64,000 bases of DNA from an uncultured Candidatus Binatia bacterium. Lineage in GTDB: Bacteria > Desulfobacterota > Binatia > UBA9968 > JAJDTQ01. Shown piece after piece: positions 2,340-39,400 of this stretch; the first letter of the stretch is position 1, and the number at the start of each line of letters is the position of its first letter. Where the stretch lies: positions 3,947,665 through 4,011,664 of the forward strand of contig OZ253480.1 of NCBI GenBank assembly GCA_965261895.1, read 5' to 3'. The translations under genes and the position numbers were made by a program. Under the pieces are notes generated by a model. It was not told the DNA's origin, searched no databases, and saw only the letters and a list, made by a program, of their open reading frames with translations.

Positions 2340-2357
2340 ATATCGTGGTGATTATAG

Positions 2358-16480: not shown

Positions 16481-16916
16481 ATGGCGTGAGACCTGGAGAA
16501 TGGCGCGTCCATTTCGAGACAGTCGCGGCGAAAGACTTCTCAGGCCCCTCGGGGACCGCGACAGGATCGCGGTTGTCGTAAAGGCCGTGGTGCGCGCGGC
16601 TGATGCATGGGGTTTGACCAATATCGAGGGCGCGGCCCTGTTCGACGTGCCCACGGCCACCTGGAGCCGCATGAAGGCCGGCAGCTACAGGGGCACACTC
16701 GATCAGGACAAGGTGACACGGGCAAGTCTGATAATCGGGTTGTTCAACGGGCTCGCGTCACTCTTCAACGGCCCGCTGGCCCATGGCTGGCCCAACGTTC
16801 CCAACACCGGCCCCGTTTTCGACGGCAGGACGCCGGTCCAGGTCATGTGCGAAGGCGGCATCCCCGCCATGATGACGGTACGACAGCACATCGATGCGCT
16901 GAGAGGCGGGGCATGA
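16476..16916 (+). CDS. Xre/MbcA/ParS-like antitoxin (DUF2384), second diverged copy
   Basis: 146 aa, highly similar to 2358-2774 at ~85-90% nucleotide identity by eye. The ATGA overlaps the toxin start. Confidence 0.7.
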   Translation: MIWRETWRMARPFRDSRGERLLRPLGDRDRIAVVVKAVVRAADAWGLTNIEGAALFDVPTATWSRMKAGSYRGTLDQDKVTRASLIIGLFNGLASLFNGPLAHGWPNVPNTGPVFDGRTPVQVMCEGGIPAMMTVRQHIDALRGGA

Positions 16917-17759: not shown

Positions 17760-19271
17760 TTGGCGATGGCTGGCATTCTGATCAGTTGGATCGGTCAAAC
17801 TGACCTTCGGGCACCGGGGGAAGGGCCGCTCGTAGGGAAGGGTCCGATAGCCCAGGCGCTCGACACAAACTCCTATGACGCTGCCGTGCTGATTAGCGAT
17901 TACTCGAAAAGAGAGGTGACGCCGTTCCTACACTGGCTCCGACCGCAGATCGGAGCGCAAGTATCTGTCCACTACAAGCCGTTGTCCGGTCCCACAAACT
18001 TTGGCGAGATATACGAAGCTGCGGCTCAGGTTGTGACAGAGTCGCTCGCGCGACACGGCAGGGATTCTGAGCTGACCTTTCACCTGAGCCCAGGGACCCC
18101 AGCCATGGCGGCGGTCTGGATTGTTCTCGCCAAGACGCGGTTCCCCGCTGATCTGATCGAGTCTTCGCCCAAGCACGGTGTACGGACGGCCTCAGTACCC
18201 TTCGATATATCGGCAGAGTTTGTTCCCGACCTCCTCCGAGGTCCGGATGAACGCCTCGCGAAGCTCACCGCCGGGCTTCCTCCCGAGGCCCCGGAGTTCG
18301 CCGATATCATTCACCGTAGCCGCGTCATGGCTCGCGTAATCGCCAAGGCGCGTCGCGTTGCAGCCCGGTCAGTGTCTATACTTATAGAGGGTGAGACGGG
18401 TACCGGAAAGGAATTGCTGGCCCGGGCCATCCACCGTGCTAGCCTTCGGCGGGATAAGCCCTTCAAGGCCGTGAACTGCGGCGCAATACCGGCTGAACTC
18501 GCAGAATCCGAGCTCTTTGGCCATGAGAAAGGTGCCTTTACGGGTGCGGACAAAAAGAGGGTTGGCCACTTTGAGGCCGCGAGTGGCGGGACGCTCTTCC
18601 TTGACGAGGTCGGCGAGCTTTCGCTTGCCGTACAAGTAAAGCTGCTTCGTATTCTCCAGGAGGGGGAGGTGCTGCGTGTCGGTTCGACGACGCCGATCAA
18701 GGTGGACGTTCGAATCATCGCGGCAACAAACCGGGCCCTCGCCGATGAAGTCGCCGCAGGTCGCTTCAGGGAGGATCTATTCTATCGCCTTGCGGTGGCG
18801 GGTCTGAAACTGCCCCCCCTGAGAGAGAGAAGAGGCGACCTGAACCTTCTCCTGGATCAGTTGCTCGCCCAAGTCAACGAGGAACGCGCACAGCAGCCGG
18901 GCTATGAGCACAAGAAATTTTCTGTGAGCGCAAGAAATATTCTTCTCACTCATCCGTGGCCGGGTAACGTTCGAGAGTTGCTGAATACGCTTCATCGGGC
19001 GACGCTCTGGACGCCAGGACCGACAATCCAGGGTGAAGATGTGCGGGAGGCATTGCTGCCGGCGATAGACCGAAAGGCCTCGGGCATCCTCGACCGTCCG
19101 CTCGGCGATGGTCTCAACCTCCTGGATTTATTGGCTTCGGTGGCGCGGCACTATCTTGTGCGCGCCCTTGACGAGGCCCAGGGTAACAAGACACAGGCGG
19201 CCCGCTTGGTAGGGCTTTCGAGCTATCAGACGTTCACGAACTGGTTGGGTAAGTACGACGTGAAGCCGTGA
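17760..19271 (+). CDS. Sigma54-dependent transcriptional activator (bEBP) with a non-receiver, RtcR/CARF-like N-terminal sensor domain
   Basis: AAA+ sigma54-interaction domain with Walker A GETGTGKELLARAIH, the GAFTGA loop (FGHEKGAFTGADKK), Walker B LFLDEVGEL, and a C-terminal Fis-type HTH. The ~170-aa N-terminal domain lacks receiver Asp residues and recalls the RtcR CARF-like domain (..HLSPGTPAMAAVWIVLAKTRFPADLIESSP..). Confidence 0.75.
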   Translation: MAMAGILISWIGQTDLRAPGEGPLVGKGPIAQALDTNSYDAAVLISDYSKREVTPFLHWLRPQIGAQVSVHYKPLSGPTNFGEIYEAAAQVVTESLARHGRDSELTFHLSPGTPAMAAVWIVLAKTRFPADLIESSPKHGVRTASVPFDISAEFVPDLLRGPDERLAKLTAGLPPEAPEFADIIHRSRVMARVIAKARRVAARSVSILIEGETGTGKELLARAIHRASLRRDKPFKAVNCGAIPAELAESELFGHEKGAFTGADKKRVGHFEAASGGTLFLDEVGELSLAVQVKLLRILQEGEVLRVGSTTPIKVDVRIIAATNRALADEVAAGRFREDLFYRLAVAGLKLPPLRERRGDLNLLLDQLLAQVNEERAQQPGYEHKKFSVSARNILLTHPWPGNVRELLNTLHRATLWTPGPTIQGEDVREALLPAIDRKASGILDRPLGDGLNLLDLLASVARHYLVRALDEAQGNKTQAARLVGLSSYQTFTNWLGKYDVKP

Positions 19272-19287
19272 TGGCACGGACCTTGCC
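19272..19287 (+). promoter_or_regulatory. Sigma54 (RpoN) -24/-12 promoter TGGCAC-GGACC-TTGC immediately after the bEBP stop and ~50 bp upstream of the hsdR-like start
   Basis: Exact match to the TGGCAC-N5-TTGC consensus at 19272-19287: TGGCAC 19272-19277, 5-nt spacer, TTGC 19283-19286. Confidence 0.6.
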
Positions 19288-19334
19288 TGAGAGAGTACCT
19301 GTTGGAAGAAAGCCGGCCACGTACGGATGAGGCA

Positions 19335-21623
19335 ATGAGTCGAAACGAAGACAGAACATGCCGGGAACTGATCGAGCCCGCCCTGGAAGAGGCCGGGTGG
19401 GAGTGGGACCGGCAGGTCGTGATCGGCCCTGGCCGCGTCAACCTCACCGGCGAGTCTATGTACGACTCGTCTCAGCAGATCATCGCTGACTACGTGCTGC
19501 GTCTCTGGCGTATGCCGCTCGCCATTCTTGAGGCCAAGGCAGAGGTGGAATCAGCGACCGATGGGATGCAGCAGGGCTCCCGGTATGCTGACCGTCTTCG
19601 GCTTCGATTCTCGATCGCGTCGAACGGGTGCGACTACATCCTCACTGACAACGAAACCGGCGAATACGAGTCGTTCGACACCCCACCCACACCTGGGGAC
19701 ATTCTCTCCCGTCTCGGGCGCAACATCGTTTGGGAAGAGTGGCGTCCGGTTTTTGAGGCTCCGTGGCACGAGGACCAAATTACTCGCAAGAAGGTCCGCC
19801 CCTACCAGGAGATGGCCATCTTCGAGACCCTTTATCGCTTCAGTCAAGGCGAAAAGCGGGTACTCCTGCTAATGGCCACGGGTACGGGCAAAACCTTCAC
19901 GGTCTTTCAGCTCGCATGGAAGCTCATGCGCGGGGACGTTCTCCGGAACAACCGCCTCCTCTTCCTCACCGATCGCAACAGCCTCAAGGACCAAGCCTAT
20001 CGGGCCTTCGCCGGTTTCACCTTGGACGAGCGCGTTGTTATCGACAAGGATCTGGTCAGCCGAGGGGAGCATCTCGTCGGAAAGATCTTCTTCGCCAACT
20101 ACCAGAATCTTAACGAGGAACTGAGTGGGAAAAAGCTCTACGAGCACTTCGATCCGGATTTCTTCGACTTGGTCGTCGTGGACGAGTGTCACCGTTCCGG
20201 CTTCGGCGACTGGTTTGGAGTCCTCGATCGCTTCAAGTCAGCATATCAGTTAGGCTTGACCGCCACCCCGCGGGAAATCGATCAGAGCCGTCATACCCTT
20301 ACCGAACTGGAACTCCGGCGTGACACTTACGAGTACTTCGGGGAGCCGAAGTACGTTTACTCACTGAAGCAGGCCATAGAAGACGGCTACCTCGTCCCTT
20401 ATCTCCTAGAGGAGCGCATCTCGAACCTGGATGAGGATGGCTACACCGGACCGGACGGCAAGCAATACACAACAAAGAACTTCGAACGCGACATTCGTCT
20501 GCCCGAGCGGACTCGCGTTATCGCGGAGGACCTTTGGTCCATTCTCGGGAAGTACGGGCTCCGGGACGAGAAGACCATCGTCTTCTGCGTCGACGACACG
20601 CATGCAGCATTCGTGGCGGCGGAGTTGCGTCGCCTTTCAGGTGATGGCAACTACGCCGCGCGGATTACCAGATCCGAGCGTAACTCACATCAGCTTGAGC
20701 GCAACTTCGCAGAAGTCGGTCGCGCCAAGCCACGGGTGGCGGTCACGGTCGATCTGTTGACCACCGGCTTTGACGCACCCGACGTCAAAAACATCGTCTT
20801 CGCTCGGCCCGTTAAGAGCGCCATCCTCTATAAACAGATGAAAGGCAGGGGAACCCGCCTTTGCGACGACATCGACAAGCGCTACTTCACCATTTTCGAC
20901 TATGCCGGCGCGAATCTGCTGGAGGATGCTGAGTTCGATGGTCATCCTGCAAACCTGCAAACAAGCCGCAAGCCGCAACCGCAGAAAAAGGCGCCCGAGG
21001 CTGTCAAGGAGAAACCCGTCGGAGAGGGTGTTTCGGTCTACATTTCTTCCACGGAGCGTTACGTCTGCTTGGCCGATGGCCGAAAGATCCCTTTTGATGA
21101 GTACCGGGAGCAGTCACGCAACGCCATTCGGAGCATTGCGCCAACCAACGTCGACGAACTCTTGGATATTTGGATCGACAAGAACACACGCCGGGACTTA
21201 CGAGGTGAGCTTGCAGACCGGGATATTCATGTCGCGGCGTTCCGGCACTACCTTGAACTTGATGGATCGGATGATGTCGACATTCTTGCCAAGGTAGGGT
21301 TTGAACTGGTGCGGGTTCCATCGCGTCACGATCGCGTTGTTCGTTTCTGGGATGCCGAGGAGAACTGGTTGCTCGTTCAACTCGGCGAGCATGCCGTCCC
21401 CGATGACAATCGCTTCAAGACGTACTTCTGGCAGACCGGCCTCGACCACTATTCGCTCTACGGCATCGACGATCTTGAGAAGGGCGGCACCTACAGCGCA
21501 CCTCAGTTCGTGGAACAGTTCGGAAGCTTCAGCCGGTTGCTGAGTCTCTATGGAGGAGCCGACAAGCTGAGGACGGATTTGGAGGAAGTGAAGCAACACC
21601 TTTACGTGCCGATGTTGGCGTAG
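19335..21623 (+). CDS. Restriction enzyme R subunit (HsdR-like: HSDR_N nuclease + SF2 helicase)
   Basis: Start MSRNEDRTCRELIEPALEEAGWEW preceded by GAGG. Helicase motif I MATGTGKTFT and motif II DECHRS. A longer ORF beginning at 19302 is possible. Confidence 0.75.
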   Translation: MSRNEDRTCRELIEPALEEAGWEWDRQVVIGPGRVNLTGESMYDSSQQIIADYVLRLWRMPLAILEAKAEVESATDGMQQGSRYADRLRLRFSIASNGCDYILTDNETGEYESFDTPPTPGDILSRLGRNIVWEEWRPVFEAPWHEDQITRKKVRPYQEMAIFETLYRFSQGEKRVLLLMATGTGKTFTVFQLAWKLMRGDVLRNNRLLFLTDRNSLKDQAYRAFAGFTLDERVVIDKDLVSRGEHLVGKIFFANYQNLNEELSGKKLYEHFDPDFFDLVVVDECHRSGFGDWFGVLDRFKSAYQLGLTATPREIDQSRHTLTELELRRDTYEYFGEPKYVYSLKQAIEDGYLVPYLLEERISNLDEDGYTGPDGKQYTTKNFERDIRLPERTRVIAEDLWSILGKYGLRDEKTIVFCVDDTHAAFVAAELRRLSGDGNYAARITRSERNSHQLERNFAEVGRAKPRVAVTVDLLTTGFDAPDVKNIVFARPVKSAILYKQMKGRGTRLCDDIDKRYFTIFDYAGANLLEDAEFDGHPANLQTSRKPQPQKKAPEAVKEKPVGEGVSVYISSTERYVCLADGRKIPFDEYREQSRNAIRSIAPTNVDELLDIWIDKNTRRDLRGELADRDIHVAAFRHYLELDGSDDVDILAKVGFELVRVPSRHDRVVRFWDAEENWLLVQLGEHAVPDDNRFKTYFWQTGLDHYSLYGIDDLEKGGTYSAPQFVEQFGSFSRLLSLYGGADKLRTDLEEVKQHLYVPMLA

Positions 21624-21633
21624 GAGAACACCC

Positions 21634-23163
21634 ATGGCGCAAAGTGAGGCAAGGAACGAAGGCAAGCAGTTGTCCAACGGCACGACTGAGCACCGCCGCC
21701 AGGAGGTACAACAGGCCATCAAGAGTGCCTGTGACCAACTCCGAGACGACGGTGTGGAACCGCGTAACTACGTGGAGCAGCTCGCTTGGTTGTTCTTCCT
21801 CAAGGCATTTGACGAAATGGAGAGCCGCCGCGAAGAAGAGGCAGCCTTTGACGGCTCGTCGTACCGGCGAAGACTCGACGGCGAGTATAGTTGGTCGAGT
21901 TGGTCATCGATGTCCAACCGACCCGACCAGATGCTGGAATTTGTTGACGGGAAGCTCTGGTCACACCTCAAGAGCTTCGGAGAAACCGAGCATACCCGGC
22001 AATTCGCAAACGACCCGGTGGCCGAGCGATTCCGCCGCATCTTCTCGACGGTTCGCAACCATTCCCGTCGCGGCGCGAGCTTCGCGCGGGTCACTCAACA
22101 AGCCAATCGTCTCCAATTTGGTGACGAGACGGACGTTATAGTCCTTTCGGAACTCTATGAGGGGCTTCTGAAGGATGTAGCTGCCGACTCTGCCGGCTAT
22201 GCTGGCGAATTCTACACGCAGCGTCACGTCATCCGAGCCATGGTGGATGTGGTCCATCCCAAAATCGGAGACCGCATCTACGACCCGTGCTTCGGAACGG
22301 CTGGTTTTCTTGTCGAGTCGGCGGAGTACATCCGGAAGACGGCGGGCACCCTTAGTGGCTCGAATCTCGACCGCCTCCAGGAAAAGACCTTCTACGGGAT
22401 TGAACAAAAGCCGTTGACCTATCTCTTGGGCACGATGAATATGCTGCTGCATCGTATCGAGGGTGCGAACCTCGAACTCGGGAACACGCTAGAGCTGCAT
22501 GCGACCAACGTCTCGGAGAAAGACCGCTACGATGTTATCCTCTCGAATCCACCCTACGGCGGAAAGATGGCCCGCGAGCTTCAGACCAATTTCACAATCC
22601 AATCGGGCTCCACCGAGATACTCTTCCTGCAGCACATCATGACGCACTTGGCCAAGGGTGGCCGTGCCGCAGCGATCATCCCCGAGGGAGTCCTGTTTCG
22701 TGGCGGTCCCGACGCCAGGGTCCGTGAACGACTCCTCCGCGAATTCGACGTTCACACGATCCTCTCGCTGCCGGCAGGATGTTTCCTGCCGTACACGGGC
22801 GTGAAAACGAATGTGCTCTTCTTCACCCGCCGCAAGGATGACCGAGGCACTGGGGACGTTTGGTACTATGAGCTCACCAACGACGGGTTTGACCTTAAGT
22901 CGACGCGGCGGCCGATCCAGGGAAACCAAATTCCAGACTTCCTCACTAAGTGGGAGAAGCGAGCGAAAGGAGAGAACTCCTGGTCGGTCTCCGCGAAGGA
23001 GATCGCCGAGCAGAACTGGGACCTATCTGCCCGTAATCCTCAACAAGGAGGAAATATCGGACACAAGCCCGCGCTGGAGTTGGTTCAGTCCATCAAGGCG
23101 AAGGAAGAGAGAGTGGTCGAGCTTCTTGACGAACTGCAGGAGTTGCTGGAGGGTACCCGATGA
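21634..23163 (+). CDS. N6-adenine DNA methyltransferase subunit (HsdM-like)
   Basis: 509 aa with the SAM motif DPCFGTAGFL and the catalytic motif LSNPPYGG. Confidence 0.8.
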   Translation: MAQSEARNEGKQLSNGTTEHRRQEVQQAIKSACDQLRDDGVEPRNYVEQLAWLFFLKAFDEMESRREEEAAFDGSSYRRRLDGEYSWSSWSSMSNRPDQMLEFVDGKLWSHLKSFGETEHTRQFANDPVAERFRRIFSTVRNHSRRGASFARVTQQANRLQFGDETDVIVLSELYEGLLKDVAADSAGYAGEFYTQRHVIRAMVDVVHPKIGDRIYDPCFGTAGFLVESAEYIRKTAGTLSGSNLDRLQEKTFYGIEQKPLTYLLGTMNMLLHRIEGANLELGNTLELHATNVSEKDRYDVILSNPPYGGKMARELQTNFTIQSGSTEILFLQHIMTHLAKGGRAAAIIPEGVLFRGGPDARVRERLLREFDVHTILSLPAGCFLPYTGVKTNVLFFTRRKDDRGTGDVWYYELTNDGFDLKSTRRPIQGNQIPDFLTKWEKRAKGENSWSVSAKEIAEQNWDLSARNPQQGGNIGHKPALELVQSIKAKEERVVELLDELQELLEGTR

Positions 23164-24371
23164 GTTGGCCCGTGGCCCGCTTGGGGGATGTAGCCCAAGT
23201 GAATCCAAGACGTCACAGCGGTCTACGGTCGCTAGCTGGAAATGTGGAGGTGACGTTTGTTCCGATGGCTGCTGTGGACGAGGAAACCGGCACGATCTCT
23301 TGTCGAGAGGTGAAGCCACTTGGCGACGTTCGGAGGGGGTTGACCGCCTTTGCAGAAGGCGATGTGATTTTCGCCAAAATTACACCTTGCATGCAAAACG
23401 GGAAGTCGGCCATTGCTCATGGGCTTGTCAATGGCCTTGGCTTCGGCTCCACGGAGTTTCATGTACTCCGCCCGGGTCCAGATGTTCTTCCGGAGTGGCT
23501 GTGGTACGTCGTTCGACAACGCTCCTTCCGCGAGGAGGCCCGACGACACTTCCGCGGCTCTGCTGGTCAGCAGCGCGTCCCAGCGAGCTTTATCGAGCAA
23601 CACATGATTCCCCTGCCTTCCATTGGGTTGCAGAGACGAATCGTTGGGCAGGTTCGGTGGGCATTGGTACGAGTGAGTGAGATCCAAGATCTCCGTCGGA
23701 AGTCGCTGGCAGAGGCAACTGCACTAGAGGAAGCTGTTTTCTCGGATTTTATTGTGGATTTCATGAAGAACGCCTACGTCTCTATCGTTTCCCTTGGCGG
23801 CATCCTGGTCCGTGCACAGTATGGGTCATCCTCGAAGGCCAATACTGATGGAGAGGGTATACCTATTCTGCGGATGGGAAACATCCAGAATGGACACTTG
23901 GATGTGAGCGACCTCAAGCACATCAGTCTTTCCGCGAAGGAACTGACCAAGTACCGACTCAGCGAAGGAGACATACTTTTCAATCGGACCAACTCACTCG
24001 AGCTAGTCGGAAAGTCAGCAACCTTCACCGCATTGAAGGGAGACTGGGTGTTCGCGTCGTACCTGATCCGCCTTGATGTCGACCGTCGCAAGGCCCTCCC
24101 GGAGTACGTGACGGCGGTCATCAACAATCGGATAGGGCGAGACTACGTCTATCGCACAGCGCGGCGTGCCATTGGAATGGTGAACATCAACGCCAAGCAG
24201 ATTCAACGGCTGGAATTGCCGCTTCCCCCGTTGGCGGATCAGGAGTGGCTGGTCGGGCAAATGCGACGGGCTAAGACCGCAAGTGACAACATCCGAAGGG
24301 ATCTTGGCATGGAGGCTATAGAGGCCCTTCCTGATGCTATTCTCCACAAGGCCTTTGCGGGGGAGCTCTAA
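23160..24371 (+). CDS. Specificity subunit (HsdS-like), two TRDs
   Basis: 403 aa with ATGA overlap to hsdM. Conserved S-subunit repeats are present (LPLPSIGLQRRIV; LPLPPLADQEWLVGQM). Confidence 0.75.
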   Translation: MSWPVARLGDVAQVNPRRHSGLRSLAGNVEVTFVPMAAVDEETGTISCREVKPLGDVRRGLTAFAEGDVIFAKITPCMQNGKSAIAHGLVNGLGFGSTEFHVLRPGPDVLPEWLWYVVRQRSFREEARRHFRGSAGQQRVPASFIEQHMIPLPSIGLQRRIVGQVRWALVRVSEIQDLRRKSLAEATALEEAVFSDFIVDFMKNAYVSIVSLGGILVRAQYGSSSKANTDGEGIPILRMGNIQNGHLDVSDLKHISLSAKELTKYRLSEGDILFNRTNSLELVGKSATFTALKGDWVFASYLIRLDVDRRKALPEYVTAVINNRIGRDYVYRTARRAIGMVNINAKQIQRLELPLPPLADQEWLVGQMRRAKTASDNIRRDLGMEAIEALPDAILHKAFAGEL

Positions 24372-24403: not shown

Positions 24404-27400
24404 ATGAGCCAGCTTGAACTTACGTCTCAAGTGTCCGAGCTATGGGACCGTCTCAGTGAGATGCGCGGCCAAGGGATTCGCAACCGCCCGTTCGAGTCTG
24501 TCATCGCTCCCCTTGCGGCCCTACTCTTGCTTTGTTGGGCTGAGCACCTGGACACCGAACAGGAAGCCGAGGCTGCCTTCGACGGTCGCGACCACCTGTC
24601 TGCTCTGCCTCGGGATCAGCACTGGTCCGCGTGGTGCGAGCTTCGCGGTGAGAGGCTTGTTGGCGCCCTTCAGAGAGGGGTTTTCCCCGCCCTGCGTCAT
24701 GCATCCAGTGGCACCCTCGGCCAGTCCTTGCAGCGGCTTGCGACCGTCTTTGAGGGCCTCACCCGCGAACCTCCCGAGGTGGTCGAGATGCTCGTGCAAT
24801 GGGGCCAGTTATTCGATCTAGAGACTGCCTGTGGCAAGCAGGCAGCGGCAGACGCCCTGGCGGCTCTTTTGGACCAGGCTACCGAGAAGTCCGCGAAATT
24901 CGGAGGGGAGTTTACAACGCCCCGATCTGTGGTCCAGATGATGGTTGACCTTCTCGCTCCCAATCCAGGTGAACGCATCTACGATCCATGTTTCGGTACC
25001 GGAGGTTTGCTCGCCACCGCGGCAAAGAGACTCCGTGAGAAGGCGTTGAAGATGCCCCCGAAGGTATGGACAGATGTCCGGGAGCGAAGCGTGTTCGGGG
25101 TAGAACTCAACCCGTTCGCCTACAGCATCGGGCTTGCACGAGTGGTTTTGGAAGGTATAGAGCAACCCGGACTCGAACTTGGGGACGTTTTGGAACGCCC
25201 TTTGGTCAAAGACCGGTACTCCGAGGGATTCGATTGCATTTTGGCCGTACCTCCTTGGGGCCGCCGCGTGCGCCAGAAGGTGGCAGCCCAGTTTCAAGTA
25301 TCGTCAACTTACGTTGAGACGCTCTTTCTCCAACACGTGATGGCTTCTCTTCGGCCGGGTGGCCGCGCCGTCATTGCCCTTCCGGAAGGTGTCCTCTTCC
25401 GGGCCGGCGCCGACCGGATGGTTCGCAAGGAGTTGCTCTCGGACTTCTGCGTCGAGGGGGTAGTGTCGCTGCCGGCTGGGGCTTTCCATCCGTACACAGG
25501 GATCAAGACGAGTTTGGTCCTCTTCCGACGTGAACAAGTCAAGGATGCTGTTCGGTTCATGCAGGTTGAGGAGTGGCCCTCTGTCCGACCGGGAGATGGG
25601 CTCAGCCGTGAGAAGGCGATTTCAGTGGCGCGCAGCATCGCTGAGGAATTCAAGAACGGCACACCAAACGGTAGCCTCTGGGAAAGCCCGATCAAGGAGC
25701 TTGCGACCAGGGACTGGGAGTTGGTCGCCAAACGGACAGGTGAGGAAACCCTATCGCGCTCGCTGCAGGTTCTGAAGGAGGCGGATGCCGAGGTCCCGGT
25801 ATGGCGGCTCAACGAGGTGGCGGAGATATTCCCCGGTGTTTCGTACGGGAAGTCGGTGACCACACAGTGCGCGGACGACCCAGCGGTGTTCGCCGGGCTC
25901 GTCCGTGTTGCAGATGTGAAAGGCACCGGTCCACAAGACCCCTCCCTCTTCCTGATCGCAGAGGGTAGCGAACGAGTGCAGTCGAAGCACTGGTTACGCG
26001 GGGGAGACATCCTCCTCACTGTCTCCGGAACCATCGGAAAGTTAGGGGTTGTGTCCGAGTCGGCGGGTACGGTCGGCTCGGTGGCCGCCAAGAGTATGGC
26101 TGTAATACGTCCCAGGAAACAGGTCTCTCCACAGTTTTTGGCGAGCCTCCTAGCCTCCCCTGTATACCAGGAGTGGATCCGCGGTCATGCGCACGGGGCG
26201 ACCATTCAGCATCTCTCCGTTCGAACGCTAGCGCATCTTCGCATTCCGGTGCCCGAAGTTCCGATCCAAGAACGCGTCGTCCAACAGGTGGGCGTCGAGC
26301 GAGACGGGCCCCTCGCTGTCCTCGCGCGGATCCTGACAGGTGAAAGCGAGGATCCAGTTGTCAATTGGCTCGAAACCTCTTCCGATGTGCGCAAGCTGCG
26401 GCAATCGGGTCACACAGTCGATCCTATTGTGGTTCTGGAGCGAATCGCCCATTCGGTTGGGAACCTACGAGATCAGGTGGCGCAAGCTCAGGTCCACGGT
26501 GTGCCCGACCTTGCTTACTGGTTGTTGGAGTTCGCAGAGGCGGTGAACCCGCTAAAGGGTTTGAAGCACGTGCCTTGGGGTGCCGGGCGCATGGCGATAC
26601 TGGACAGTGCACAACTTCGCCTAGGACGGTGGTTGTCGATTCTCGAAAAGTCATCGCTGCCCGTGCTTGACGCTGCGAGGGATCTGACGGGAGGGATTTC
26701 CCGGATCGTCCGGGCCGAATTGGATTCGATCATGGAAGATGTGAAGCTGGTGCCCGGCGTTGAACCGAGCGCGGTAGTAGCGGGGACGGAAAACGAGGTC
26801 CAAGTACGTGTGACGAATCAGTCGCCTCTTGCGCTCCGCAATGTCTCGGTCTCAACTGTACCCGACATCGGTGGGCGCCGCTTCGATTACCTCGCTGAGG
26901 GTGAGACGCTCAGTTTCACGGCGAAGATTCCCGCACTCGGAAAGACAAGCCCTTTTCCTTTCGAGCTTCGATGGCGAGCGGACCGCCTTGACGGACGGCC
27001 AGTATCCGGTGAATTGCCGCTGGCCGTAGATGTTCGCTCGACGCGCGAAGCCGTCCACCTCTCGGAGCTCGGGGCCAGCCCGTACATCGTCGGAAACCCG
27101 ATCGATCGAGAGGAGATGTTCTTTGGCCGTCGAGATCTCATCGACAAGATTAGGCGACAGCTCTCCACAAGTCACAGTGCCAACGTCATTCTTCTGGAAG
27201 GCAATCGTAGAACGGGCAAGACCTCCATTCTCAAGCGCCTACAGGCTCCCCACGTGCTCCCAGGTTGGATTGTCGTAAACTGCTCTTTCCAAGGTGGCGA
27301 GGGCCACGAAAGCAAGGCTGGTTTGCCCACCAACGAGGTTTTCAGACTCATGGCGCGCGACATCGGCCAGGCGGTGGATGACGCCGGGCACCAAGTATCG

Positions 27401-28330
27401 CTTCCGGACATGGTTCTCCCAGATTTGAAGAGGCGGTTCAAGGTAGCGTTTGTGAAGGCTCTAGCGACGGCATTCTCCGGTCCGCAACCCTTCCAGGTGT
27501 TCGAGCTTTACATACAGGCTGTCTTGGAGGCTGCCAGTCCGCGACGCCTCCTGCTCATGCTTGACGAATTTGACAAGCTCCAGGAGGGCATCGACACCGG
27601 CGTCACGAGCCCGCAAGTTCCGGAAAACCTCCGCTACCTGCTTCACAACTACCAAGGGCTGTCAGCCATACTCACTGGCTCTCGCCGTCTCAAGCGACTT
27701 CGGGAGGAGTACTGGTCGGCGCTCTTCGGGTTTGGGCACAGAGTCTCCGTGAGTGAACTCCCGTTGGGGGATGCGCGACTCCTTGTGAAGCAGCCGGTCG
27801 AGGGGCGGCTTACGTACGTGCCCGAGGCGACAGACCGCGTGGTCGAACTGTGTTCGCGACAACCCTTCCTGATCCAGTCATTGTGCAACCAGATCTTCGA
27901 GCGAACTGCCCTCTCGGACGAGCGAACGGTGACGGTGGGCGCGGTAGACGCCGCTGCCACGGAGATGGTTCAGGACAACGAGCACTTCCGTACGCTTTGG
28001 GGTTACGCCGGGACCGAACGCAAACGTTTCGTTCTGTCGTTGTGTCAGCGGCTAAAGGAGGGACCAGATCCCATCACACTAAGTTTGTTGGAGGCGAAGC
28101 TTGAGGAGTGTGGCATTGCCCTCCCTTATGGCGAACGTTTGGGAGATGATCTGGAGTATCTCCGTGAACTCGAACTTATCGAACTTGAGGAGACTACGCG
28201 GGGCCCGGCATATACGCTCGCTGTTCCGTTGATGGCCGACTGGATACGGCGGAACATCGACTTCGAGGATCAGCGCCAGCAGGTCGTTCGGGAAATTGAA
28301 GAAAAGGTGACCACGGAGGAAGAACAGTGA
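24404..28330 (+). CDS. Multidomain fusion protein: HsdM-like MTase (non-canonical motif IV AVPPW) + single S-type TRD + ORC/Arch-type AAA+ ATPase with a winged-helix C-terminus
   Basis: 1308 aa. Residues 1-390 have the MTase motif I IYDPCFGTGGL, but the motif IV position reads ILAVPPWGRR (gta = Val) where N/D/S is expected. Residues ~400-640 are TRD-like (LRGGDILLTVSGTIGKLG...IQHLSVRTLAHLRIPVPEVPIQERV). Residues ~870-1308 carry FFGRRDLIDKIRRQL, Walker A GNRRTGKTS and Walker B LLLMLDEFD. Confidence 0.65.
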   Translation: MSQLELTSQVSELWDRLSEMRGQGIRNRPFESVIAPLAALLLLCWAEHLDTEQEAEAAFDGRDHLSALPRDQHWSAWCELRGERLVGALQRGVFPALRHASSGTLGQSLQRLATVFEGLTREPPEVVEMLVQWGQLFDLETACGKQAAADALAALLDQATEKSAKFGGEFTTPRSVVQMMVDLLAPNPGERIYDPCFGTGGLLATAAKRLREKALKMPPKVWTDVRERSVFGVELNPFAYSIGLARVVLEGIEQPGLELGDVLERPLVKDRYSEGFDCILAVPPWGRRVRQKVAAQFQVSSTYVETLFLQHVMASLRPGGRAVIALPEGVLFRAGADRMVRKELLSDFCVEGVVSLPAGAFHPYTGIKTSLVLFRREQVKDAVRFMQVEEWPSVRPGDGLSREKAISVARSIAEEFKNGTPNGSLWESPIKELATRDWELVAKRTGEETLSRSLQVLKEADAEVPVWRLNEVAEIFPGVSYGKSVTTQCADDPAVFAGLVRVADVKGTGPQDPSLFLIAEGSERVQSKHWLRGGDILLTVSGTIGKLGVVSESAGTVGSVAAKSMAVIRPRKQVSPQFLASLLASPVYQEWIRGHAHGATIQHLSVRTLAHLRIPVPEVPIQERVVQQVGVERDGPLAVLARILTGESEDPVVNWLETSSDVRKLRQSGHTVDPIVVLERIAHSVGNLRDQVAQAQVHGVPDLAYWLLEFAEAVNPLKGLKHVPWGAGRMAILDSAQLRLGRWLSILEKSSLPVLDAARDLTGGISRIVRAELDSIMEDVKLVPGVEPSAVVAGTENEVQVRVTNQSPLALRNVSVSTVPDIGGRRFDYLAEGETLSFTAKIPALGKTSPFPFELRWRADRLDGRPVSGELPLAVDVRSTREAVHLSELGASPYIVGNPIDREEMFFGRRDLIDKIRRQLSTSHSANVILLEGNRRTGKTSILKRLQAPHVLPGWIVVNCSFQGGEGHESKAGLPTNEVFRLMARDIGQAVDDAGHQVSLPDMVLPDLKRRFKVAFVKALATAFSGPQPFQVFELYIQAVLEAASPRRLLLMLDEFDKLQEGIDTGVTSPQVPENLRYLLHNYQGLSAILTGSRRLKRLREEYWSALFGFGHRVSVSELPLGDARLLVKQPVEGRLTYVPEATDRVVELCSRQPFLIQSLCNQIFERTALSDERTVTVGAVDAAATEMVQDNEHFRTLWGYAGTERKRFVLSLCQRLKEGPDPITLSLLEAKLEECGIALPYGERLGDDLEYLRELELIELEETTRGPAYTLAVPLMADWIRRNIDFEDQRQQVVREIEEKVTTEEEQ

Positions 28331-29916
28331 GCGAAAGTCCCTACCAAGTCCTTGGCCTAGGAGTCCCGGCAATGCTCGGGCGCGAGCGGCTTCTCGAACG
28401 GCTACTTCGCCACCTGACCAAGCCAACGCCAGACCACATGTGCGTCGTAGGCCCTCCGCTGTTCGGGAAATCGGTCTTCCTCAATCACGCTGCTGCCTAC
28501 TTCAAGGAGGCAGGTGATCACTACGTCACCTCCCTCTACTGGGACCTCCGGCATAGCACTCCAGGAACCGACGACCAGTTCCGCCGGCGTTTCGCGGAGC
28601 GAGTCAGGGATGCCCTCCAACCGGTAGAACCTGGCCTTGCCAAGGACCTTGACCCGGAGGACGAAGCGCTTGCCGATCTTCTTCCTCTCGTCTTCGATGA
28701 GTTGGATCGAAAGGGAATCCGCTTCCTCGCCGTGCTCGACGGGTTCGATCACGTTCTTGAAGGGAGTGGCATTACGAGAAATCTGTGGGATTACATGAGG
28801 ACGCTTTGCGAGAAAACCAGCCTTCGACTCGCAACTGGAAGCCGGAGCAGACTCCGTGAGCTTTGTAAGAGCGAGGACTCCCGGACATCAGATTTCTGGG
28901 AGATCTTCTACCACACCCCGTTGGAGGTCGGGTGTTTTGAAGAGCACGACTGGAACGGTTTCCTCGATCCCTTCAAATCGCGGGGGATCACGTTCGACGG
29001 ATCCGCTCTCAAAGAGATTGCCAACTGGACTGGCGGTGTCCCGGTTCTGGCAGCGGCTTTGGCCGAGCGGCTACTGGACGGGGTTCTCGACGGCGCATCG
29101 CTCTCCAAATCCCACGTGGACAGGATCGCACGGGACGTGGCTGAGGAACGACGAGATCTACTCGCGGCGCTTTGGGATCATTGTCAAATCGACCTGCAGT
29201 CTGATCTGGTCGCCCTCGCCCACAGCGATCTCCGATCGTCCGAGGTGTCCGATGAACGGAAGCGCCGGCTCGAACTGCGGGGGTTCGCCCGCTCGTCCGG
29301 AACTCGGCTCCGAGGTTCGTGTCGTTTGATGGTCCAATATGCCCAGCAGCGAGGGGGCGAGGTGGAGAATCTGCGGCGGCTATTCGGCGACGCGGAGCTT
29401 TTCGAGAGCAATATTCGAAGTCTCCTTGAGATCCGTTTGGCGCAGATACCCATCGTCGATTCGGAGCTGGTGGGATATGTCCAATACGCGATCCGGGATC
29501 TGCAGCCGAACCCCACCAACACCGTGGTTTGGGCCCGAAGCATCGCTGAAAGAGGTCTGGATCTGATCTGGAAGGCCGAGCTTCCGGTGAGCAGGTCTCT
29601 GCCGGACGCCTGGAAATTTGTCGGAGTGAAGTTTGACGAACGGGGCCAGTTTCCTACGAGACGTGGTCCGCAGTGTGGAATCCTCCGTCTCATCACGGGT
29701 ACGGAAGACCACGACCCGGTCGCGAAGTTCGTAACTAGGCCGACGTACTTGCTTGTAAACCACATTCACTCTGTCGGTGACTTCGGACAGCACAAGGGAG
29801 ACACCGCCGTGTCAGTGTCGTTCGCCGCTGCGTTTTGTCTGTCAGCAATTGGCCTCTGCGAAAGCCTTGCCAGGGAACTGACTACGTCAGCGAGCACGCT
29901 GATCCCGGATGGCTGA
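28327..29916 (+). CDS. Second ORC/Arch-type AAA+ ATPase with an uncharacterised C-terminal domain
   Basis: The GTG start overlaps the upstream TGA. N-terminal LGRERLLERLLRHL, Walker A GPPLFGKS, Walker B FLAVLDGFD. The ~200-aa C-terminal region was not recognised. Confidence 0.55.
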   Translation: MSESPYQVLGLGVPAMLGRERLLERLLRHLTKPTPDHMCVVGPPLFGKSVFLNHAAAYFKEAGDHYVTSLYWDLRHSTPGTDDQFRRRFAERVRDALQPVEPGLAKDLDPEDEALADLLPLVFDELDRKGIRFLAVLDGFDHVLEGSGITRNLWDYMRTLCEKTSLRLATGSRSRLRELCKSEDSRTSDFWEIFYHTPLEVGCFEEHDWNGFLDPFKSRGITFDGSALKEIANWTGGVPVLAAALAERLLDGVLDGASLSKSHVDRIARDVAEERRDLLAALWDHCQIDLQSDLVALAHSDLRSSEVSDERKRRLELRGFARSSGTRLRGSCRLMVQYAQQRGGEVENLRRLFGDAELFESNIRSLLEIRLAQIPIVDSELVGYVQYAIRDLQPNPTNTVVWARSIAERGLDLIWKAELPVSRSLPDAWKFVGVKFDERGQFPTRRGPQCGILRLITGTEDHDPVAKFVTRPTYLLVNHIHSVGDFGQHKGDTAVSVSFAAAFCLSAIGLCESLARELTTSASTLIPDG

Positions 29917-30008: not shown

Positions 30009-30647
30009 ATGCTGTATTGGGAGGAAGGTAACTCCGCCGAGGATGACACTTTTTGCTGGAAATGCGGGGAGTCCTATCTGCTGAACTGCCCCTCGTGTAA
30101 CCACCAACTCGGAAATGCGTTTGATACCATGAAGTCGGCGTTTGATGGGAAGCCGCGGAAGGTGCCTAACAAACCGGCATTCTGTGGCAAGTGCGGCAAG
30201 CCCTATCCCTGGACGTTAGCTGAGCATCAGAGAATTGAGGACGCTGGATTTTGGTCGCTGGTGCATCCCATGGTCATCAAGCTGGCAAGGCCTCGGTTTG
30301 AGACAGGTCACTATGCGGATGCGGTGGAAGCCGCGTTCAAGGGACTGAACAGCAACGTAAAAGAACTTTTTCTGACCGCGAAAGGGCGAGAACTCGACGG
30401 CCCGGACCTTATGAGGAAGGCGTTACGGACCGATGACGCCGTGCTCGTCTTAGGTGACCTTACAACAGAGTCTGGCCGCAACATTCAAGATGGTTACTCT
30501 CATATTTTTGCGGGTGCCATGCAGGCAATCCGCAATCCCAGTGCCCATGCAAACACGGAGATTGGTTCGAATCGAGCATGCCACCAATTGATGCTTGCAA
30601 GCCTTCTTTTCCGTCAAATTGATGAAAGAAGGAAAGGCGATAGGTAG
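30009..30647 (+). CDS. Double zinc-ribbon + TIGR02391 (Hypoth_Ymh) HEPN-family Abi-like protein
   Basis: N-terminal Cys pairs CWKCG...CPSCNH...CGKCGKPYPW. The C-terminal Ymh domain carries the HEPN Rx4-6H motif (IRNPSAHANTEI). A GTGCCCaaacGGGCAC hairpin sits just upstream of the ATG. Confidence 0.55.
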   Translation: MLYWEEGNSAEDDTFCWKCGESYLLNCPSCNHQLGNAFDTMKSAFDGKPRKVPNKPAFCGKCGKPYPWTLAEHQRIEDAGFWSLVHPMVIKLARPRFETGHYADAVEAAFKGLNSNVKELFLTAKGRELDGPDLMRKALRTDDAVLVLGDLTTESGRNIQDGYSHIFAGAMQAIRNPSAHANTEIGSNRACHQLMLASLLFRQIDERRKGDR

Positions 30648-35970: not shown

Positions 35971-36065
35971 CAAAAGATCGCCAAATCTCCCCAATATTGG
36001 GGTGGCTAGCCAGCTCGCGACGCGTTTAAACTACCATGGCGCGTGAGCGCCGCCGGGAGGAGACC
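35971..36065 (+). promoter_or_regulatory. Conserved ~100-bp upstream element, copy a (palindrome TCCCCAATATTGGGG + box GCGCGTGAGCGCCGCCGGGAG), upstream of giant adhesin 1
   Basis: It shares GTCAAA..CGCCAAATCTCCCCAATATTGGGGA...(35-37 nt)...TCAGCGCCGCCGGGAG with the copies at 45586, 46595, 52741 and 54131. Confidence 0.6.
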
Positions 36066-36449
36066 CGGCGAGAACCGTTGCGCGGTCTGTTCGACCCCAC
36101 GGGGCATCGGCTTTCATTCGGATTATTGCAGCTACGGGAGGCTAGGGATGACCCTTTTTCGCTTACCTCGGACAACACGTTTTCTGCGCCGGATACCTGT
36201 GTCAAAGGCAACGGATCCAAGCTGGCGGGAGACCGGATCTCATTCGTGAAGCCAAGGCGACCCCAAGATCCTACAGCGTCAGGCGACGGGCGTTGTCGAC
36301 CGCTTGCCAACGTGTCTGTGGGCTCGTCGGATCGCGTTCCAATTTCCTTCCTCCCCAGGCGCCATCCCGTTTTCAGACCAGCGATGCCCTGCCGACGCAT
36401 GTGCATCGTTCTCATCTCTCTTACGCGAATTCACCGGGACCCTTCGACC

Positions 36450-39400
36450 ATGCATCATCTCGTTGTGCCTTGCACCGTACGCTGTCTCGCAATCATGCTG
36501 TTCTCCGCGTTCGTCGCGTTGCTTGCCACGCCCGCCTACGCGCAGACCGAGGTTCCGAGCAACTGGCCCCTGAAACCTCCGGGACTGAATGTGGGCGACG
36601 AATTTCGCCTGGTGTTCATGGGGAAAGTTTCGCGGAATGCAGATTCGACGGACGTCGCGGTCTATGACGCGCATGTGCAAGGCCGTATCGCCGGCATCGG
36701 CCACGCGGAAATCAAGGCGTATTCGAGCCATTTCAAGGTTCTGGGTTCCACCTCCACGGTGAATGCGCGAATGCACACCGGAACGACCGGAACCGGCGGC
36801 GTGCCGATCTATTGGCTGAACGGCCCGAAAGTCGCGGACAACTACGCCGACTTCTACGACGGCACTTGGGACGACAAGGACGGTGCGACACTGGAGGATG
36901 GCACGTCGCTTAGCTCCGGTCGCAAGGACCAATTCATTTGCACCGGCACCAACGATGACGGGACGACGGCGTCACAGCCTCTCGGCGCAGCCACATGTGC
37001 CGGAACGAAGATCAATATCTCGGGGAACACCCTGAGCGGGGCGACGGGTGCGAGCAGCGCAGCATCGCGCTACCTGGTGCTCTCCGGCGTCTTCCGGGTC
37101 GGCAACTTCACCGCCACCATCCCGACGGTCGAGAGCGTGCGCGTCACCTCGGATCCCGGCAGCGACGGCGAATATGTCAAGGACGACGCGATCAAGGTCA
37201 CGGTGACGTTTTCGGAAGCGGTCGCCGTTACTGGAACGCCCAAAATCAAACTGAGACTCTCCGAAGAGGCGACGCCGAAGAGACCCGGTTACGTCGCTGC
37301 CGAAAGCACGGCGACGGCGCTGGTGTTCTCCTACACGGTGAAGGCGACCGACTATTCCCATGACGGGGTCATCATCCCCAGGAACGGGATCGTCCTCAGC
37401 GGCGGCGCGACGATCAAGAACCAGGCCGGCACCGTGGACGCGGACCTGGATCACGCCAAGAAAGATTCGCTGAGCGCCCACAAGGTGCACGTCCGGCCAT
37501 TGGTCACCGGCGTAACCGTGGCTTCGACGCCGGCGGCCAACGGCATCTACCGGACCGGCGAGACCATCCAGATCGACCTGACCTTCGACAAGGCGGTGGC
37601 TGTCTTCACCGACTTCGGCACGCCCGAAGTCTGGTTCGTCATGGATGGCTCGAATCCGGCGCGCCGCGAGGCTGCCTACACGACGACCGTCGGAGACCAT
37701 GTCGTGCGCTTCGATTATGCGGTCCAGGCCGCGGACCTGGACGACGACGGCATATTGTTCATGAACAACGCGATTGTCTGGAACGACGGGGCGATTATCA
37801 GAAAGGCGCATGGTGACGTTGACGACCTCGATGAATTGAAGACCCTGAGGGTGGACGAAAACGGTGGGAGTACCTCCACGTACCCCCAGACCGGCCACAG
37901 GGTGAATGCGGCGGTGTCGACGGACGCGACGCTGAGCGACCTGGATCTGGAGGACAGCAACGGCGCCGCGATCGAGCTGACCCCGTCGACGTTCGCGTCG
38001 ACGACGACGTCCTACACGGCGTCGGTGGCCTACGCGGTGGACGAGATCACCATCGTCCCGACGGTGATCGAGATCTATGCGACGGTGGCGTATTTGGACG
38101 CGAGCGACACGGCGCTCACGGACGCGGACGCGAACAAGAACGGCTTCCAGACGCCGCTCGCGGCGGGCGCGAACACGATCAAGGTGAAGGTGACGGCGGA
38201 CGACGACTTCACCACCCTGACCTACACGATCACGGTAACGCGGGGCGCCGCCTCCACCGACGCGACGCTGAGTTCCCTGGCGTTCACGGACGCGGCCAAC
38301 GGCAACACCATTTCTCTGACTCCGGGCGGGAACCGCACCTACACGACGTCTGTGATCAGCAGCGTGGACGAAATCACCGTCCTCCCGACGGTGAACGAGA
38401 GCAACGCGACGGTCGCGTACCTGAACGCGTCGGACACGGCGCTCACGGACGCGGACGTGGCGAAGGACGATTTCCAGGTGGTGCTCGCGGTCGGCGCGAA
38501 CACGATCAAGGTGAAGGTGACGGCCGAGGACGGGGATACCATCGAGACCTACACGGTGGTGGTGACCCGGGCTGCTTTGGTGCCGGGCCAGGTGACGGGG
38601 GTCGAGGTAACGCCGGGCACTGGCCGGTTGAAGGTCGACTGGAACGCCGTGACCAACGCCGACGGCTACAAAGTGCAGTGGAAATCGGGTACCGAGACGT
38701 TCACCAACGCGGCTGCGAACAGCCGGGAGGCGACGGTCACGTCGGGTTCGACGACGAGCCATACGATCACGGGCCTGACCAACGGCACCGCCTACGACGT
38801 ACAGGTGATCGCGACGCGGACCAACGCCGCCGACGAGACGCCCTCGGCGCCGGCATCGGGCACGCCGGGCGCGGCGCCGGGCCAGGTGACGGGGGTCGAG
38901 GTAACGCCGGGCACCGGCCGGTTGAAGGTCGACTGGGACGCCGTGACCAACGCCGATGGTTACAAGGTGCAGTGGAAATCGGGCGCGGAGACCTTCGCCG
39001 ATGCGGCTGCGAACAGCCGGGAGGCGACGGTCACGTCGGGCTCGACGACGCGCCACACGATCACGGGCCTGACCAACGGTACCGCCTATGACGTGCAGGT
39101 CATCGCCACCCGGACCAACGCGGACGACGGGACGCCCTCGGCGCCGGCGACGGACACGCCGTCGCAGACGGTGCGAATCACGGGCGTGGCGTTCACGAAC
39201 GTCCCTTCGAACAACGTCTATAACCTCGGCGACACGATCGAGGTGAGCATCACGTTCAATGCGGCGGTTGAGGTAACCGGAACCCCGAAGGTGCAAATGT
39301 ATTTCGTCGACAAGCATAAATTCTACGAATACGCCAACTACGACGCTGCCTTCAGCACGGATACGGTGCTCGTCTTCAAGCGCCTCGTGACCGGCGACGA

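Follow-up and report, generated by a model that had tools for sequence, protein, structure and literature searches.

The 64,000-nucleotide stretch considered here (the window; contig OZ253480.1, assembly GCA_965261895.1, from an uncultured Candidatus Binatia bacterium) carries two overlapping genes that combine parts of a Type I restriction-modification (R-M) system with two nucleoside triphosphatases (NTPases). The upstream gene (positions 24404-28330, plus strand; ATG start) encodes a protein of 1308 residues, here called the fusion, in which an HsdM-like methylase and a single target recognition domain (TRD) are joined to a P-loop NTPase. The downstream gene (28327-29916, plus strand; GTG start) encodes a second NTPase of 529 residues, here called the partner. 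Together they make a widespread and so far undescribed gene pair of bacteria that probably serves as an inducible anti-phage system. The fuller reading that we favour, and that we regard as about an even call, is that the pair forms the conserved core of an inducible conflict module, most likely anti-phage, which derives from a Type I system and in which a non-methylating reader gates the two NTPases. Confidence in any specific trigger or effector is much less than in this general model.

From its N-terminus, the fusion consists of the HsdM-like methylase, one TRD, a helical domain, an immunoglobulin (Ig)-like beta-sandwich, the P-loop NTPase and a C-terminal helical/winged-helix region. The methylase part has both the N6_Mtase fold and the HsdM-type N-terminal domain: Pfam places N6_Mtase at residues 150-389 (E 9e-43), the PADLOC model MTase_I PDLC03021 aligns over residues 6-447 with the N-terminal domain included (E 1e-68), and the solved HsdM 5ybb matches residues 10-383 (E 1e-42). 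Motif I, DPCFGTGG (residues 194-201; 24983-25006, plus strand), which binds S-adenosylmethionine (SAM), and the acidic residue of motif II, E234, are in place and are conserved family-wide. The single HsdS-type TRD occupies residues 465-630 (25796-26293, plus strand); it is matched by Methylase_S in Pfam (residues 526-626, E 4e-6) and by Specificity_I in PADLOC (465-629), and it resembles the half-S subunits 8vsr and 8vsq of the PDB. An earlier, sequence-only reading of this DNA had recognized the HsdM architecture, the intact DPCFGTGG and the lone TRD, and the Pfam, PADLOC and 5ybb matches bear it out.

What sets the module apart is motif IV. In place of (N/D)PP(F/Y/W) the fusion has VPPW (25247-25258, plus strand), in the context ILAVPPWG (residues 279-286), and Val282, encoded by gta at 25247-25249, takes the position of the catalytic Asn/Asp. 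A three-way alignment of the HsdM proteins of the window sets V282 under the Asn of NPPY (in the methylase at 21634-23163) and of NPPF (in that at 11525-13018), with the remaining methylase motifs, I-III and V-VIII, in register; the non-canonical residue claimed by the sequence-only reading is thereby confirmed. The same reading had named a sequencing error among the things that would undo it, and this is excluded: because the passage from an Asn codon (AAT or AAC) to GTA needs three substitutions, VPPW is no single-base error, and it also occurs in P0001, a protein of another assembly that is 99% identical. The separate two-TRD HsdS that gives an M2S1 complex is missing as well, and its place is taken by the one TRD fused in cis. 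With its motif IV and its single fused TRD, the N-terminal module is, as far as its sequence tells, not a functional HsdM. In gamma-class N6-adenine methylases (EcoKI, M.TaqI), replacing the Asn/Asp of motif IV abolishes or strongly lowers catalysis.

Is the valine a peculiarity of one genome? Loss of the catalytic Asn/Asp is common to the whole clade of the window fusion. Among more than 120 full-length homologues (44-99% identity), drawn from Gemmatimonadota, Planctomycetota, Acidobacteriota, Actinomycetota, cyanobacteria and other phyla, VPPW is the majority form; APPW, CPPW, SPPW, HPPW, VVPS, APPA and LAPA occur too, and NPPW is found in only 3. Neither N nor D stands at position 282 in any of the 45 methylase-bearing fusions of GTDB species genomes. 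To reach more distant relatives, the full database was searched by HMMER with the NTPase part of the fusion, which gave 322 representatives (50% identity clusters, E <= 1e-30); the methylase-TRD head is present in 110 of the 111 long ones.

Conservation was counted on 110 distant full-length representatives at 50% clustering. Position 282 is N in 41, D in 12 and S in 3 (56 of 110), and in the remainder it is V (23), A (11), C (6), H (5), T (3), I, M, F or Y; the complete canonical motif, [NDS]PP[YFW], is present in 40 of 108 (about 37%). The residues around it behave differently: P283 is retained in 102 of 110 and P284 in 106, and in the SAM pocket D194 is kept in 104, P195 in 107, G198 in 103, E/D234 in 107 and D/N261 in 103. 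The most conserved part of the fusion is the NTPase region, with K939, D1054 and E1055 each found in 110 of 110. On a distance tree the canonical and non-canonical states of motif IV are interspersed, which implies repeated loss, and the clade of the window protein is dominated by non-canonical forms.

A position 282 that has been released, while the SAM pocket, the Pro-Pro-aromatic platform for base flipping and the NTPases remain constrained, is the signature of a non-methylating binding module. From this selective relaxation we infer, short of proof, that the fusion module binds without needing to methylate, a possibility that the sequence-only reading had raised. It has gained from the selective loss at position 282 beside a preserved SAM pocket and has lost some ground to the fully canonical relatives: because N, D or S persists in about half of the distant relatives and 37% are canonical throughout, the family is best seen as a mix of probably active and dead methylases.

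Another intriguing question is what such a module would read. The TRD had been taken as a sign of sequence-specific DNA recognition; one TRD is there, but its conservation points to a fixed ligand. In close relatives its identity to the query is 0.55-0.62 without gaps, on a par with the methylase domain, and among distant relatives the mean pairwise identity is 0.31 for the TRD versus 0.37 for the methylase domain, with few gaps. An internal control comes from the same loci, in which the canonical HsdM proteins are 70-84% identical, whereas the HsdS proteins are 26-61% identical or undetectable; for the fusions, the TRD and the methylase domain stand at 64 versus 69% in one locus (L001) and at 45 versus 44% in another (L011). 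A TRD whose conservation runs parallel to that of the methylase domain speaks for a single fixed ligand rather than for R-M-style specificities, and it seems that the M-TRD module reads such a ligand. A specificity common to the fusion TRD and those of the adjacent HsdS, which the sequence-only reading had proposed to look for, was rejected, as the identity is only 21-31% and is confined to a generic TRD core.

The link between this head and the NTPase is made of the helical domain (residues 636-778; 26309-26737, plus strand) and of the Ig-like, or CARDB-like, beta-sandwich (residues 782-878; 26747-27037, plus strand). The former carries a degenerate HEPN-type motif, LRDQVAQ (residues 688-694), in which R689 to Q694 correspond to 26468-26485. 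The pattern R-[ND]-x3-H is found in 69 of 121 close relatives, while the window fusion has R-D-Q-V-A-Q, with the His gone, and the motif is degenerate in most of the GTDB loci. It is a patchy feature and possibly an ancestral one.

The NTPase of the fusion (27119-27883, plus strand) has its Walker A, GNRRTGKTS, at residues 933-941 (27200-27226) and its Walker B, LLMLDEFD, at residues 1050-1057 (27551-27574). In Pfam it matches AAA_16 over residues 906-1061 at 32.2 bits, just missing the cut-off of 32.6, and AAA_22 at 27.7 bits against a cut-off of 27, the two together spanning residues 906-1098; AAA_14 matches as well. The partner, whose GTG start overlaps the TGA stop of the fusion (caGTGAgc, a GTGA overlap), is translationally coupled to it, as had been noticed from the sequence alone. 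Its residues 17-240 match AAA_16, ATPase_2 and AAA_22, with Walker A GPPLFGKS at residues 42-49 and Walker B LAVLDGFD at 134-141, and G42, G47, K48, D138 and D141 are invariant in its family. The two NTPases are not recent paralogues; that idea was rejected because their alignment covers no more than the part between Walker B and the sensor region, at E 0.08.

To which class do these NTPases belong? Both have a P-loop with conserved Walker A and B. In the partner family (n=54, E <= 0.1) AAA_16 matches 54 members, NACHT 39, NPHP3_N 36, NB-ARC 20 and nSTAND2 19, and all of the Pfam STAND-family matches fall below the gathering scores; the fusion matches AAA_16, AAA_22 and AAA_14 only. On these sub-threshold family matches, the NTPases are better described as STAND/NACHT-like than as ORC/archaeal-type, the name under which they first went. 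Pfam finds no TPR, WD40 or LRR repeat families that could make a C-terminal sensor in either protein, and the sensor-like part is the N-terminal methylase-TRD. Sequence searches of the PDB with the partner profile and the fusion NTPase returned spurious or P-loop-level matches only, and no relatives of the partner were found among viral contigs. The proposal of the sequence-only reading that a sensor is coupled to a nucleotide-dependent switch gains from the strong constraint on the NTPase motifs; the R-M-style sequence specificity that went with it does not stand.

The C-terminal part of the partner (residues 331-529; 29317-29913, plus strand) is a candidate for the effector. No Pfam family matches across residues ~330-529, and the region is predicted to be an all-alpha bundle (pLDDT, the predicted local distance difference test, 77). 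In Foldseek this domain comes closest to 2hsb (prob 0.93, E 0.63) and to a number of Csm6 HEPN domains. It contains an invariant G484-[ND]-F-G487-Q-H489 (29776-29793), which corresponds to a HEPN-like N-x3-H with Gly where Arg is expected, and the catalytic R-x4-6-H is thus incomplete. Profile comparisons of this domain with the helical domain of the fusion, and of each with a Ymh-type HEPN protein encoded further downstream in the window, gave no HEPN support. The predicted fold and the motif suggest, weakly, a HEPN-like domain of a non-canonical kind.

The genes that surround the pair tell more about its use. At 17760-19271 (plus strand) lies the regulator of the cassette, an RtcR-like sigma-54 activator with a CARF-like N-terminal domain, an AAA+ domain and a Fis-type helix-turn-helix (HTH). 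The PADLOC model RtcR_PspF2--CARF_AAA_HTH matches its residues 6-501 (E 3e-199), Pfam adds Sigma54_activat (E 3e-71) and HTH_8, and as it scores 349 bits on the NCBIfam RtcR model, below the equivalog cut-off of 650, it is RtcR-like and not RtcR proper. One base past its stop codon begins a sigma-54 (-24/-12) promoter, TGGCACGGACCTTGC (19272-19286, plus strand), which ends 16 nucleotides before the hsdR open reading frame (ORF) and is the sole zero-mismatch match to TGGCAC-N5-TTGC on both strands of the 64 kb. A scan of 17-33 kb for intrinsic terminators and sigma-70 promoters gave nothing above chance.

Downstream of the activator follow hsdR, hsdM, hsdS, the fusion and the partner; the combination of a CARF-AAA+-HTH activator with a sigma-54 promoter is that of the RtcR regulon, but the targets are not rtcB and rtcA. 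HsdR (19302-21623, plus strand) has HSDR_N, a ResIII superfamily 2 (SF2) motor and EcoEI_R_C in Pfam and matches REase_I in PADLOC (E 5e-95). The canonical HsdM (21634-23163, plus strand), with intact NPPY, matches N6_Mtase (E 1e-65) and HsdM_N, and the canonical HsdS (23160-24371, plus strand) has two TRDs, seen as two stretches of Methylase_S in Pfam and as Specificity_I in PADLOC. The complete hsdRMS of the window appears to be driven by the sigma-54 promoter under the control of the RtcR-like CARF activator. An R-M system that is inducible raises the question of how self-methylation is maintained. The sequence-only reading had the ORF pair right and overlooked the activator, its promoter, the coupling to hsdR and the HEPN-like C-terminus of the partner.

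How general is this arrangement? It was followed in 57 partner-anchored loci taken from GTDB species genomes. An ATPase-bearing fusion ORF lies directly upstream of the partner in 48 of the 57 loci (49 places), with a 4-bp overlap in at least 21 of them. The commonest architecture, RtcR-like activator, fusion and partner (20 loci), has no hsdR nearby, and 20 loci carry the cassette and lack a Type I system within 10 kb. The order of the window, (RtcR-like), hsdR, hsdM, hsdS, fusion and partner, occurs in 12-13 loci, and across these HsdR is 71-88% identical; the HsdR and HsdM of the hsdRMS-bearing cassette are unusually conserved across phyla (70-88%). The fusion and partner are found with no visible regulator in 10 loci, behind hsdR alone in 1 and with a helicase-headed fusion in 1; the fusion is degenerate in 4 and the partner stands alone in 7. 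In 31 of 57 loci the sequence upstream of the pair shows an RtcR-like homologue of 60-79% identity, and a sigma-54 element with at most one mismatch lies 4-49 bp past the RtcR-like gene, on the plus strand, in 28 of the 32 loci that show the 3' end of that gene.

As judged by gene order, the conserved unit is a three-gene cassette made of the RtcR-like activator with its sigma-54 promoter, the fusion and the partner. Two relatives with NPPW (P0114 and P0110) have the same three genes amid unrelated housekeeping genes, which makes the cassette the unit of inheritance. A conserved fourth gene downstream was looked for by all-against-all clustering of ORFs and rejected, as the clusters contained nothing but shadow ORFs and, within a single clade, a convergent ATPase of AAA_14/DUF4143 type that is unrelated. 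Three Vicinamibacterales loci (L020, L042 and L048) have a sigma-54-like element, TGGTACGCACTTTGC, ~65 bp upstream of the fusion and no RtcR-like gene within 6 kb upstream of it; their activator may be encoded elsewhere. In a Spirochaetia metagenome-assembled genome (MAG), two tandem pairs of fusion and partner (L055, 551-5984 and 6016-11551) stand behind a single RtcR-like gene and differ in motif IV, VPPV in one and APPW in the other. Lone partner-like proteins (33-46% identity) beside unrelated genes, such as AsmA/YhdP and DnaB, in L028, L041, L049 and L056 indicate that the partner family also exists outside the cassette.

Other variants concern the head of the fusion and its company. In a Spirochaetia MAG (L019, 6114-10004) and in one further protein (P0268), a DEAD/Helicase_C SF2 helicase replaces the methylase-TRD head on the same NTPase body, and in L019 the partner still follows with a 4-bp overlap; this exchange is consistent with a swappable nucleic-acid sensor. 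Three Acinetobacter ursingii plasmids carry hsdR, a fusion with HPPV as motif IV and the partner, joined by 8-bp overlaps, with neither hsdM nor hsdS and with a WYL-domain regulator upstream in place of RtcR. One of them is the clinical IMP-4 carbapenemase plasmid pRIVM0002_IMP-4 (L062; NZ_MH220285.1, locus 1044-11866; operon at plasmid positions 194747-202512). It offers both a cultured, tractable homologue and a restriction operon that has no working methylase. A MAG locus (L034) has the same hsdR, fusion and partner, again with no active methylase.

Part of this context has been seen before. RtcR-like or PspF-like regulators beside R-M systems were noted by Makarova et al. 2014 (PMC4012209), who proposed for these RtcR-like proteins the same type of signal as for true RtcR. 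In Supplementary File 4 of that work this gene order already appears for Desulfococcus oleovorans Hxd3, where one gene, of 4089 bp, carries pfam02384, pfam01420 and pfam13191; RtcR-like genes with R-M systems but no fusion are listed there for Desulfobacterium, Geobacter, Hahella and Marinomonas. Its main text describes the general association only and does not single out the fusion, the dead motif IV or the partner.

All of the points above can be brought together in one working scheme. The operon would be off by default, and a signal of infection or damage, sensed by the activator through its CARF domain, would turn it on; for true RtcR, the signal is RNA fragments whose ends carry a 2',3'-cyclic phosphate. 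The dead methylase-TRD would then read its one fixed ligand, in the simplest case DNA bound in the manner of a Type I enzyme, with SAM as cofactor and no methyl transfer, and candidate triggers are DNA, modified DNA or a DNA-mimic anti-restriction protein. Binding would gate an NTP-dependent assembly of both NTPases, and the output would pass through the HEPN-like domain of the partner, through HsdR that the HsdM-like module recruits, or by both routes, with restriction or abortive infection as the end result. A reader unable to mark self DNA is one for which tight transcriptional control would make sense.

Several observations weigh against this scheme. The minimal three-gene cassette lacks an unambiguous effector, HsdR is missing from most loci, and the window fusion has an RNxxxH motif of its own from which the His has gone. 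If the module senses diverse phage DNA, the conservation of its TRD is unexpected. Among the distant relatives about half still have N or D and could be genuine methylases, and the inactivity of VPPW is extrapolated from (N/D)PP(Y/F/W) mutants of other gamma-class methylases. The defence role is read from gene context, no PADLOC model matches the NTPase half of the fusion or the partner, and nearly all of the loci come from uncultured MAGs.

Which other explanations, then, deserve a place? The conservation of the TRD is also what one would expect if no particular sequence were read, and this is the starting point for an integrated decoy: the dead HsdM-TRD would mimic the M·S complex, so that DNA mimics such as Ocr and ArdA switch on the STAND NTPases, guarding the neighbouring Type I system. 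Catalysis would be dispensable while the M·S shape and the SAM pocket stay conserved, the pair is often co-operonic with a highly conserved hsdRMS, and there is a precedent in Ronin, where HsdMS, with no HsdR, senses Ocr, ArdA and Aop1 and methylase activity is unneeded (bioRxiv 10.1101/2023.04.06.535777). We nevertheless think the decoy rather unlikely, for 20 loci carry the cassette away from any Type I system, the helicase-headed variant is explained more simply by a nucleic-acid sensor than by a decoy of another kind, one M with one TRD supplies, unless the protein dimerizes, just one half of the M2S1 groove into which Ocr binds, and a guard made only after induction would arrive late. An extended version, in which a receptor of the nucleotide-binding leucine-rich-repeat (NLR) type would hold the decoy as bait for mimics of the Ocr/ArdA class and would be placed under a CARF/sigma-54 "second alarm" that senses RNA damage from first-line defences, is an unlikely one. 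That the pocket itself reads a base is the idea of a sensor comparable to Type IV systems, in which the Asn/Asp-less pocket would flip N6-methylated or otherwise modified adenine, self-methylation would be unneeded and the effector would be HsdR or the partner. The replacements at 282 are mainly small hydrophobic ones with Pro-Pro-Trp kept, and operons of hsdR, dead fusion and partner with no methylase at all exist, as in the A. ursingii plasmids and L034; on the other hand, the strongly conserved SAM residues are not obviously needed with a methylated base in the pocket, members with NPPW occupy the same cassette, and the base preference has no direct support. We hold this to be quite unlikely.

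The remaining two explanations stay closer to R-M itself. The fusion could be a working, perhaps slow, methyltransferase, that is, the M and S of an unusual single-chain R-M system of Type I-like or BREX-like kind, whose NTPases regulate or power restriction and whose VPPW is tolerated. Apart from motif IV the methylase motifs are undamaged, as is the SAM pocket; relatives with NPPW, NPPF and DPPW share the cassette, and some operons couple hsdR directly to the fusion. These facts are outweighed by the free variation of position 282 (V, A, C, H, T, I, M, F, Y), by the decay of the whole motif in some members (VVPS, LAPA, HPPV, HMRR) whose rest is conserved, by the effect of the same replacement in EcoKI and M.TaqI, and by a TRD that lacks the diversification typical of R-M specificity, and we regard an active enzyme as improbable. 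Or does the fusion sense nothing foreign, and only compete for HsdR or sequester it, as an accessory controller that alleviates or times restriction? Both here and at about 13 loci it lies in the hsdRMS operon, and it retains the HsdM-like body including the N-terminal domain (PDLC03021 over residues 6-447). The commonest architecture and the stand-alone cassettes, however, have no hsdR close by, and two strictly conserved NTPases with a dedicated regulator are much machinery for a passive competitor; this we regard as highly improbable.

As for the rest of the window, the operon belongs to a defence island of lower guanine-plus-cytosine (GC) content that extends over ~2-33 kb and includes a second Type I system, two RES proteins, a nucleotidyltransferase and a Zn-ribbon/Ymh HEPN gene. 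The GC content is 0.55-0.63 over 1-34000 and 0.62-0.72 over 36000-64000, a contrast that suggests horizontal acquisition of the island. The second Type I system (5507-13018) is composed of hsdR (5507-8281), hsdS (8282-9871) and hsdM (11525-13018, NPPF), with two minus-strand ORFs (9900-10394 and 11079-11501) between hsdS and hsdM. The RES-domain proteins, of an NAD+-targeting toxin family, are encoded at 2705-3484 and 16607-17626, the second directly upstream of the RtcR-like gene; together with the nucleotidyltransferase (4076-4738) and an MtlR-like protein (4857-5510), they are possibly parts of toxin-antitoxin modules. The higher-GC side has giant Calx-beta/fn3/cadherin-like proteins (36036-44240, 2734 residues; 54588-59642, 1684 residues), a P450, a type I secretion OEP/HlyD pair and adhesin genes.

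The gene at 30009-30647 (plus strand), 92 bp past the partner, encodes the Ymh-type protein mentioned above, a Zn-ribbon (DUF2321/DZR) joined to a Hypoth_Ymh (TIGR02391) HEPN domain with an intact RNPSAH; in PADLOC it resembles PD-Lambda-3_B and an Argonaute-associated HEPN. As a conserved effector of the pair it was rejected, since it is absent downstream of the partner in 57 of 57 related loci, and it is probably an independent defence gene.

If the reading that we favour is right, there is a large unnamed family, with 322 clusters at 50% identity in at least 10 phyla, mostly from soil and sediment bacteria that are uncultured, and also on clinical A. ursingii plasmids and in D. oleovorans Hxd3, in which a restriction methylase now serves as a non-catalytic reader linked to NTPases of the STAND type. 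It would be a natural experiment, in which the catalytic residue has been lost repeatedly across a family that retains its SAM pocket. Whole restriction operons would be under a CARF-domain sigma-54 activator, so that some R-M systems and R-M-derived defences would be induced by infection or RNA damage and not be constitutive. With such a family one could also test, in a tractable setting, decoy or guard logic in the immunity of bacteria and what RtcR-like CARF domains sense.

How does this system compare with those already described? With the Type I M subunits (EcoKI, 5ybb) it shares the N-terminal 640 residues of the fusion, that is, the HsdM N-domain, the gamma-class N6_Mtase and the HsdS-type TRD, and in the window it is encoded in one operon with a canonical hsdRMS. 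It departs from them by the Val in place of the catalytic Asn, by the union of M and a single, non-hypervariable TRD in one chain, and by the addition of ~670 residues (Ig-like domain and P-loop NTPase) and of an obligatorily linked second NTPase. Ronin (Silas et al., bioRxiv 10.1101/2023.04.06.535777), made of HsdM, HsdS and RonA, linked to R-M or BREX and independent of methylase activity, is alike in that a module derived from Type I M·S serves something other than methylation. However, its HsdM and HsdS are separate and the HsdM is catalytically intact, its toxin is a 61-residue membrane protein, and it has neither NTPases nor a sigma-54/CARF regulator; the window operon, which contains hsdR, differs in architecture and is not a Ronin system, though no search aimed at a RonA-like gene was made.

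The Avs and bNACHT systems have in common with the pair a STAND/NACHT-type P-loop NTPase, a sensor domain and a putative effector domain, with a modular sensor head that is here a methylase-TRD or an SF2 helicase; unlike them, the pair joins two different NTPases, and its sensor is an N-terminal nucleic-acid enzyme fold and not TPR, WD40 or LRR. With rtcBA/RtcR it shares the CARF-AAA+-HTH enhancer-binding protein and the adjacent sigma-54 promoter, whereas in the window it is hsdRMS together with the fusion and the partner that are regulated, the activator points the same way as its targets and the promoter abuts the stop codon of the activator. The likeness to BREX, with its PglX methylase-TRD, its ORC/Cdc6-like ATPase BrxC and its inactive STAND protein BrxB, is a conceptual one, of a methylase-TRD reader with ORC/STAND-type NTPases; the methylase is HsdM-like and not PglX-like, methylation has apparently been lost, PglZ and BrxL are absent, and no Brx or Pgl model in PADLOC matches the C-terminal half of the fusion or the partner at E <= 1. 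The system is not MADS either, as the NCBIfam models give 84.5 bits for MADS2 (cut-off 720) and 38 for MADS5 (cut-off 400). PADLOC 2.0 and NCBIfam hold no model or name for either NTPase half, and a literature search on inactive-methylase/STAND fusions, on sigma-54/CARF control of R-M and on this domain combination found no description beyond the supplementary table of Makarova 2014. What was known already is, therefore, the association of RtcR-like regulators with R-M systems (2014); what is new, although not categorically so, is the combination of a Type I-derived reader with STAND-type NTPases.

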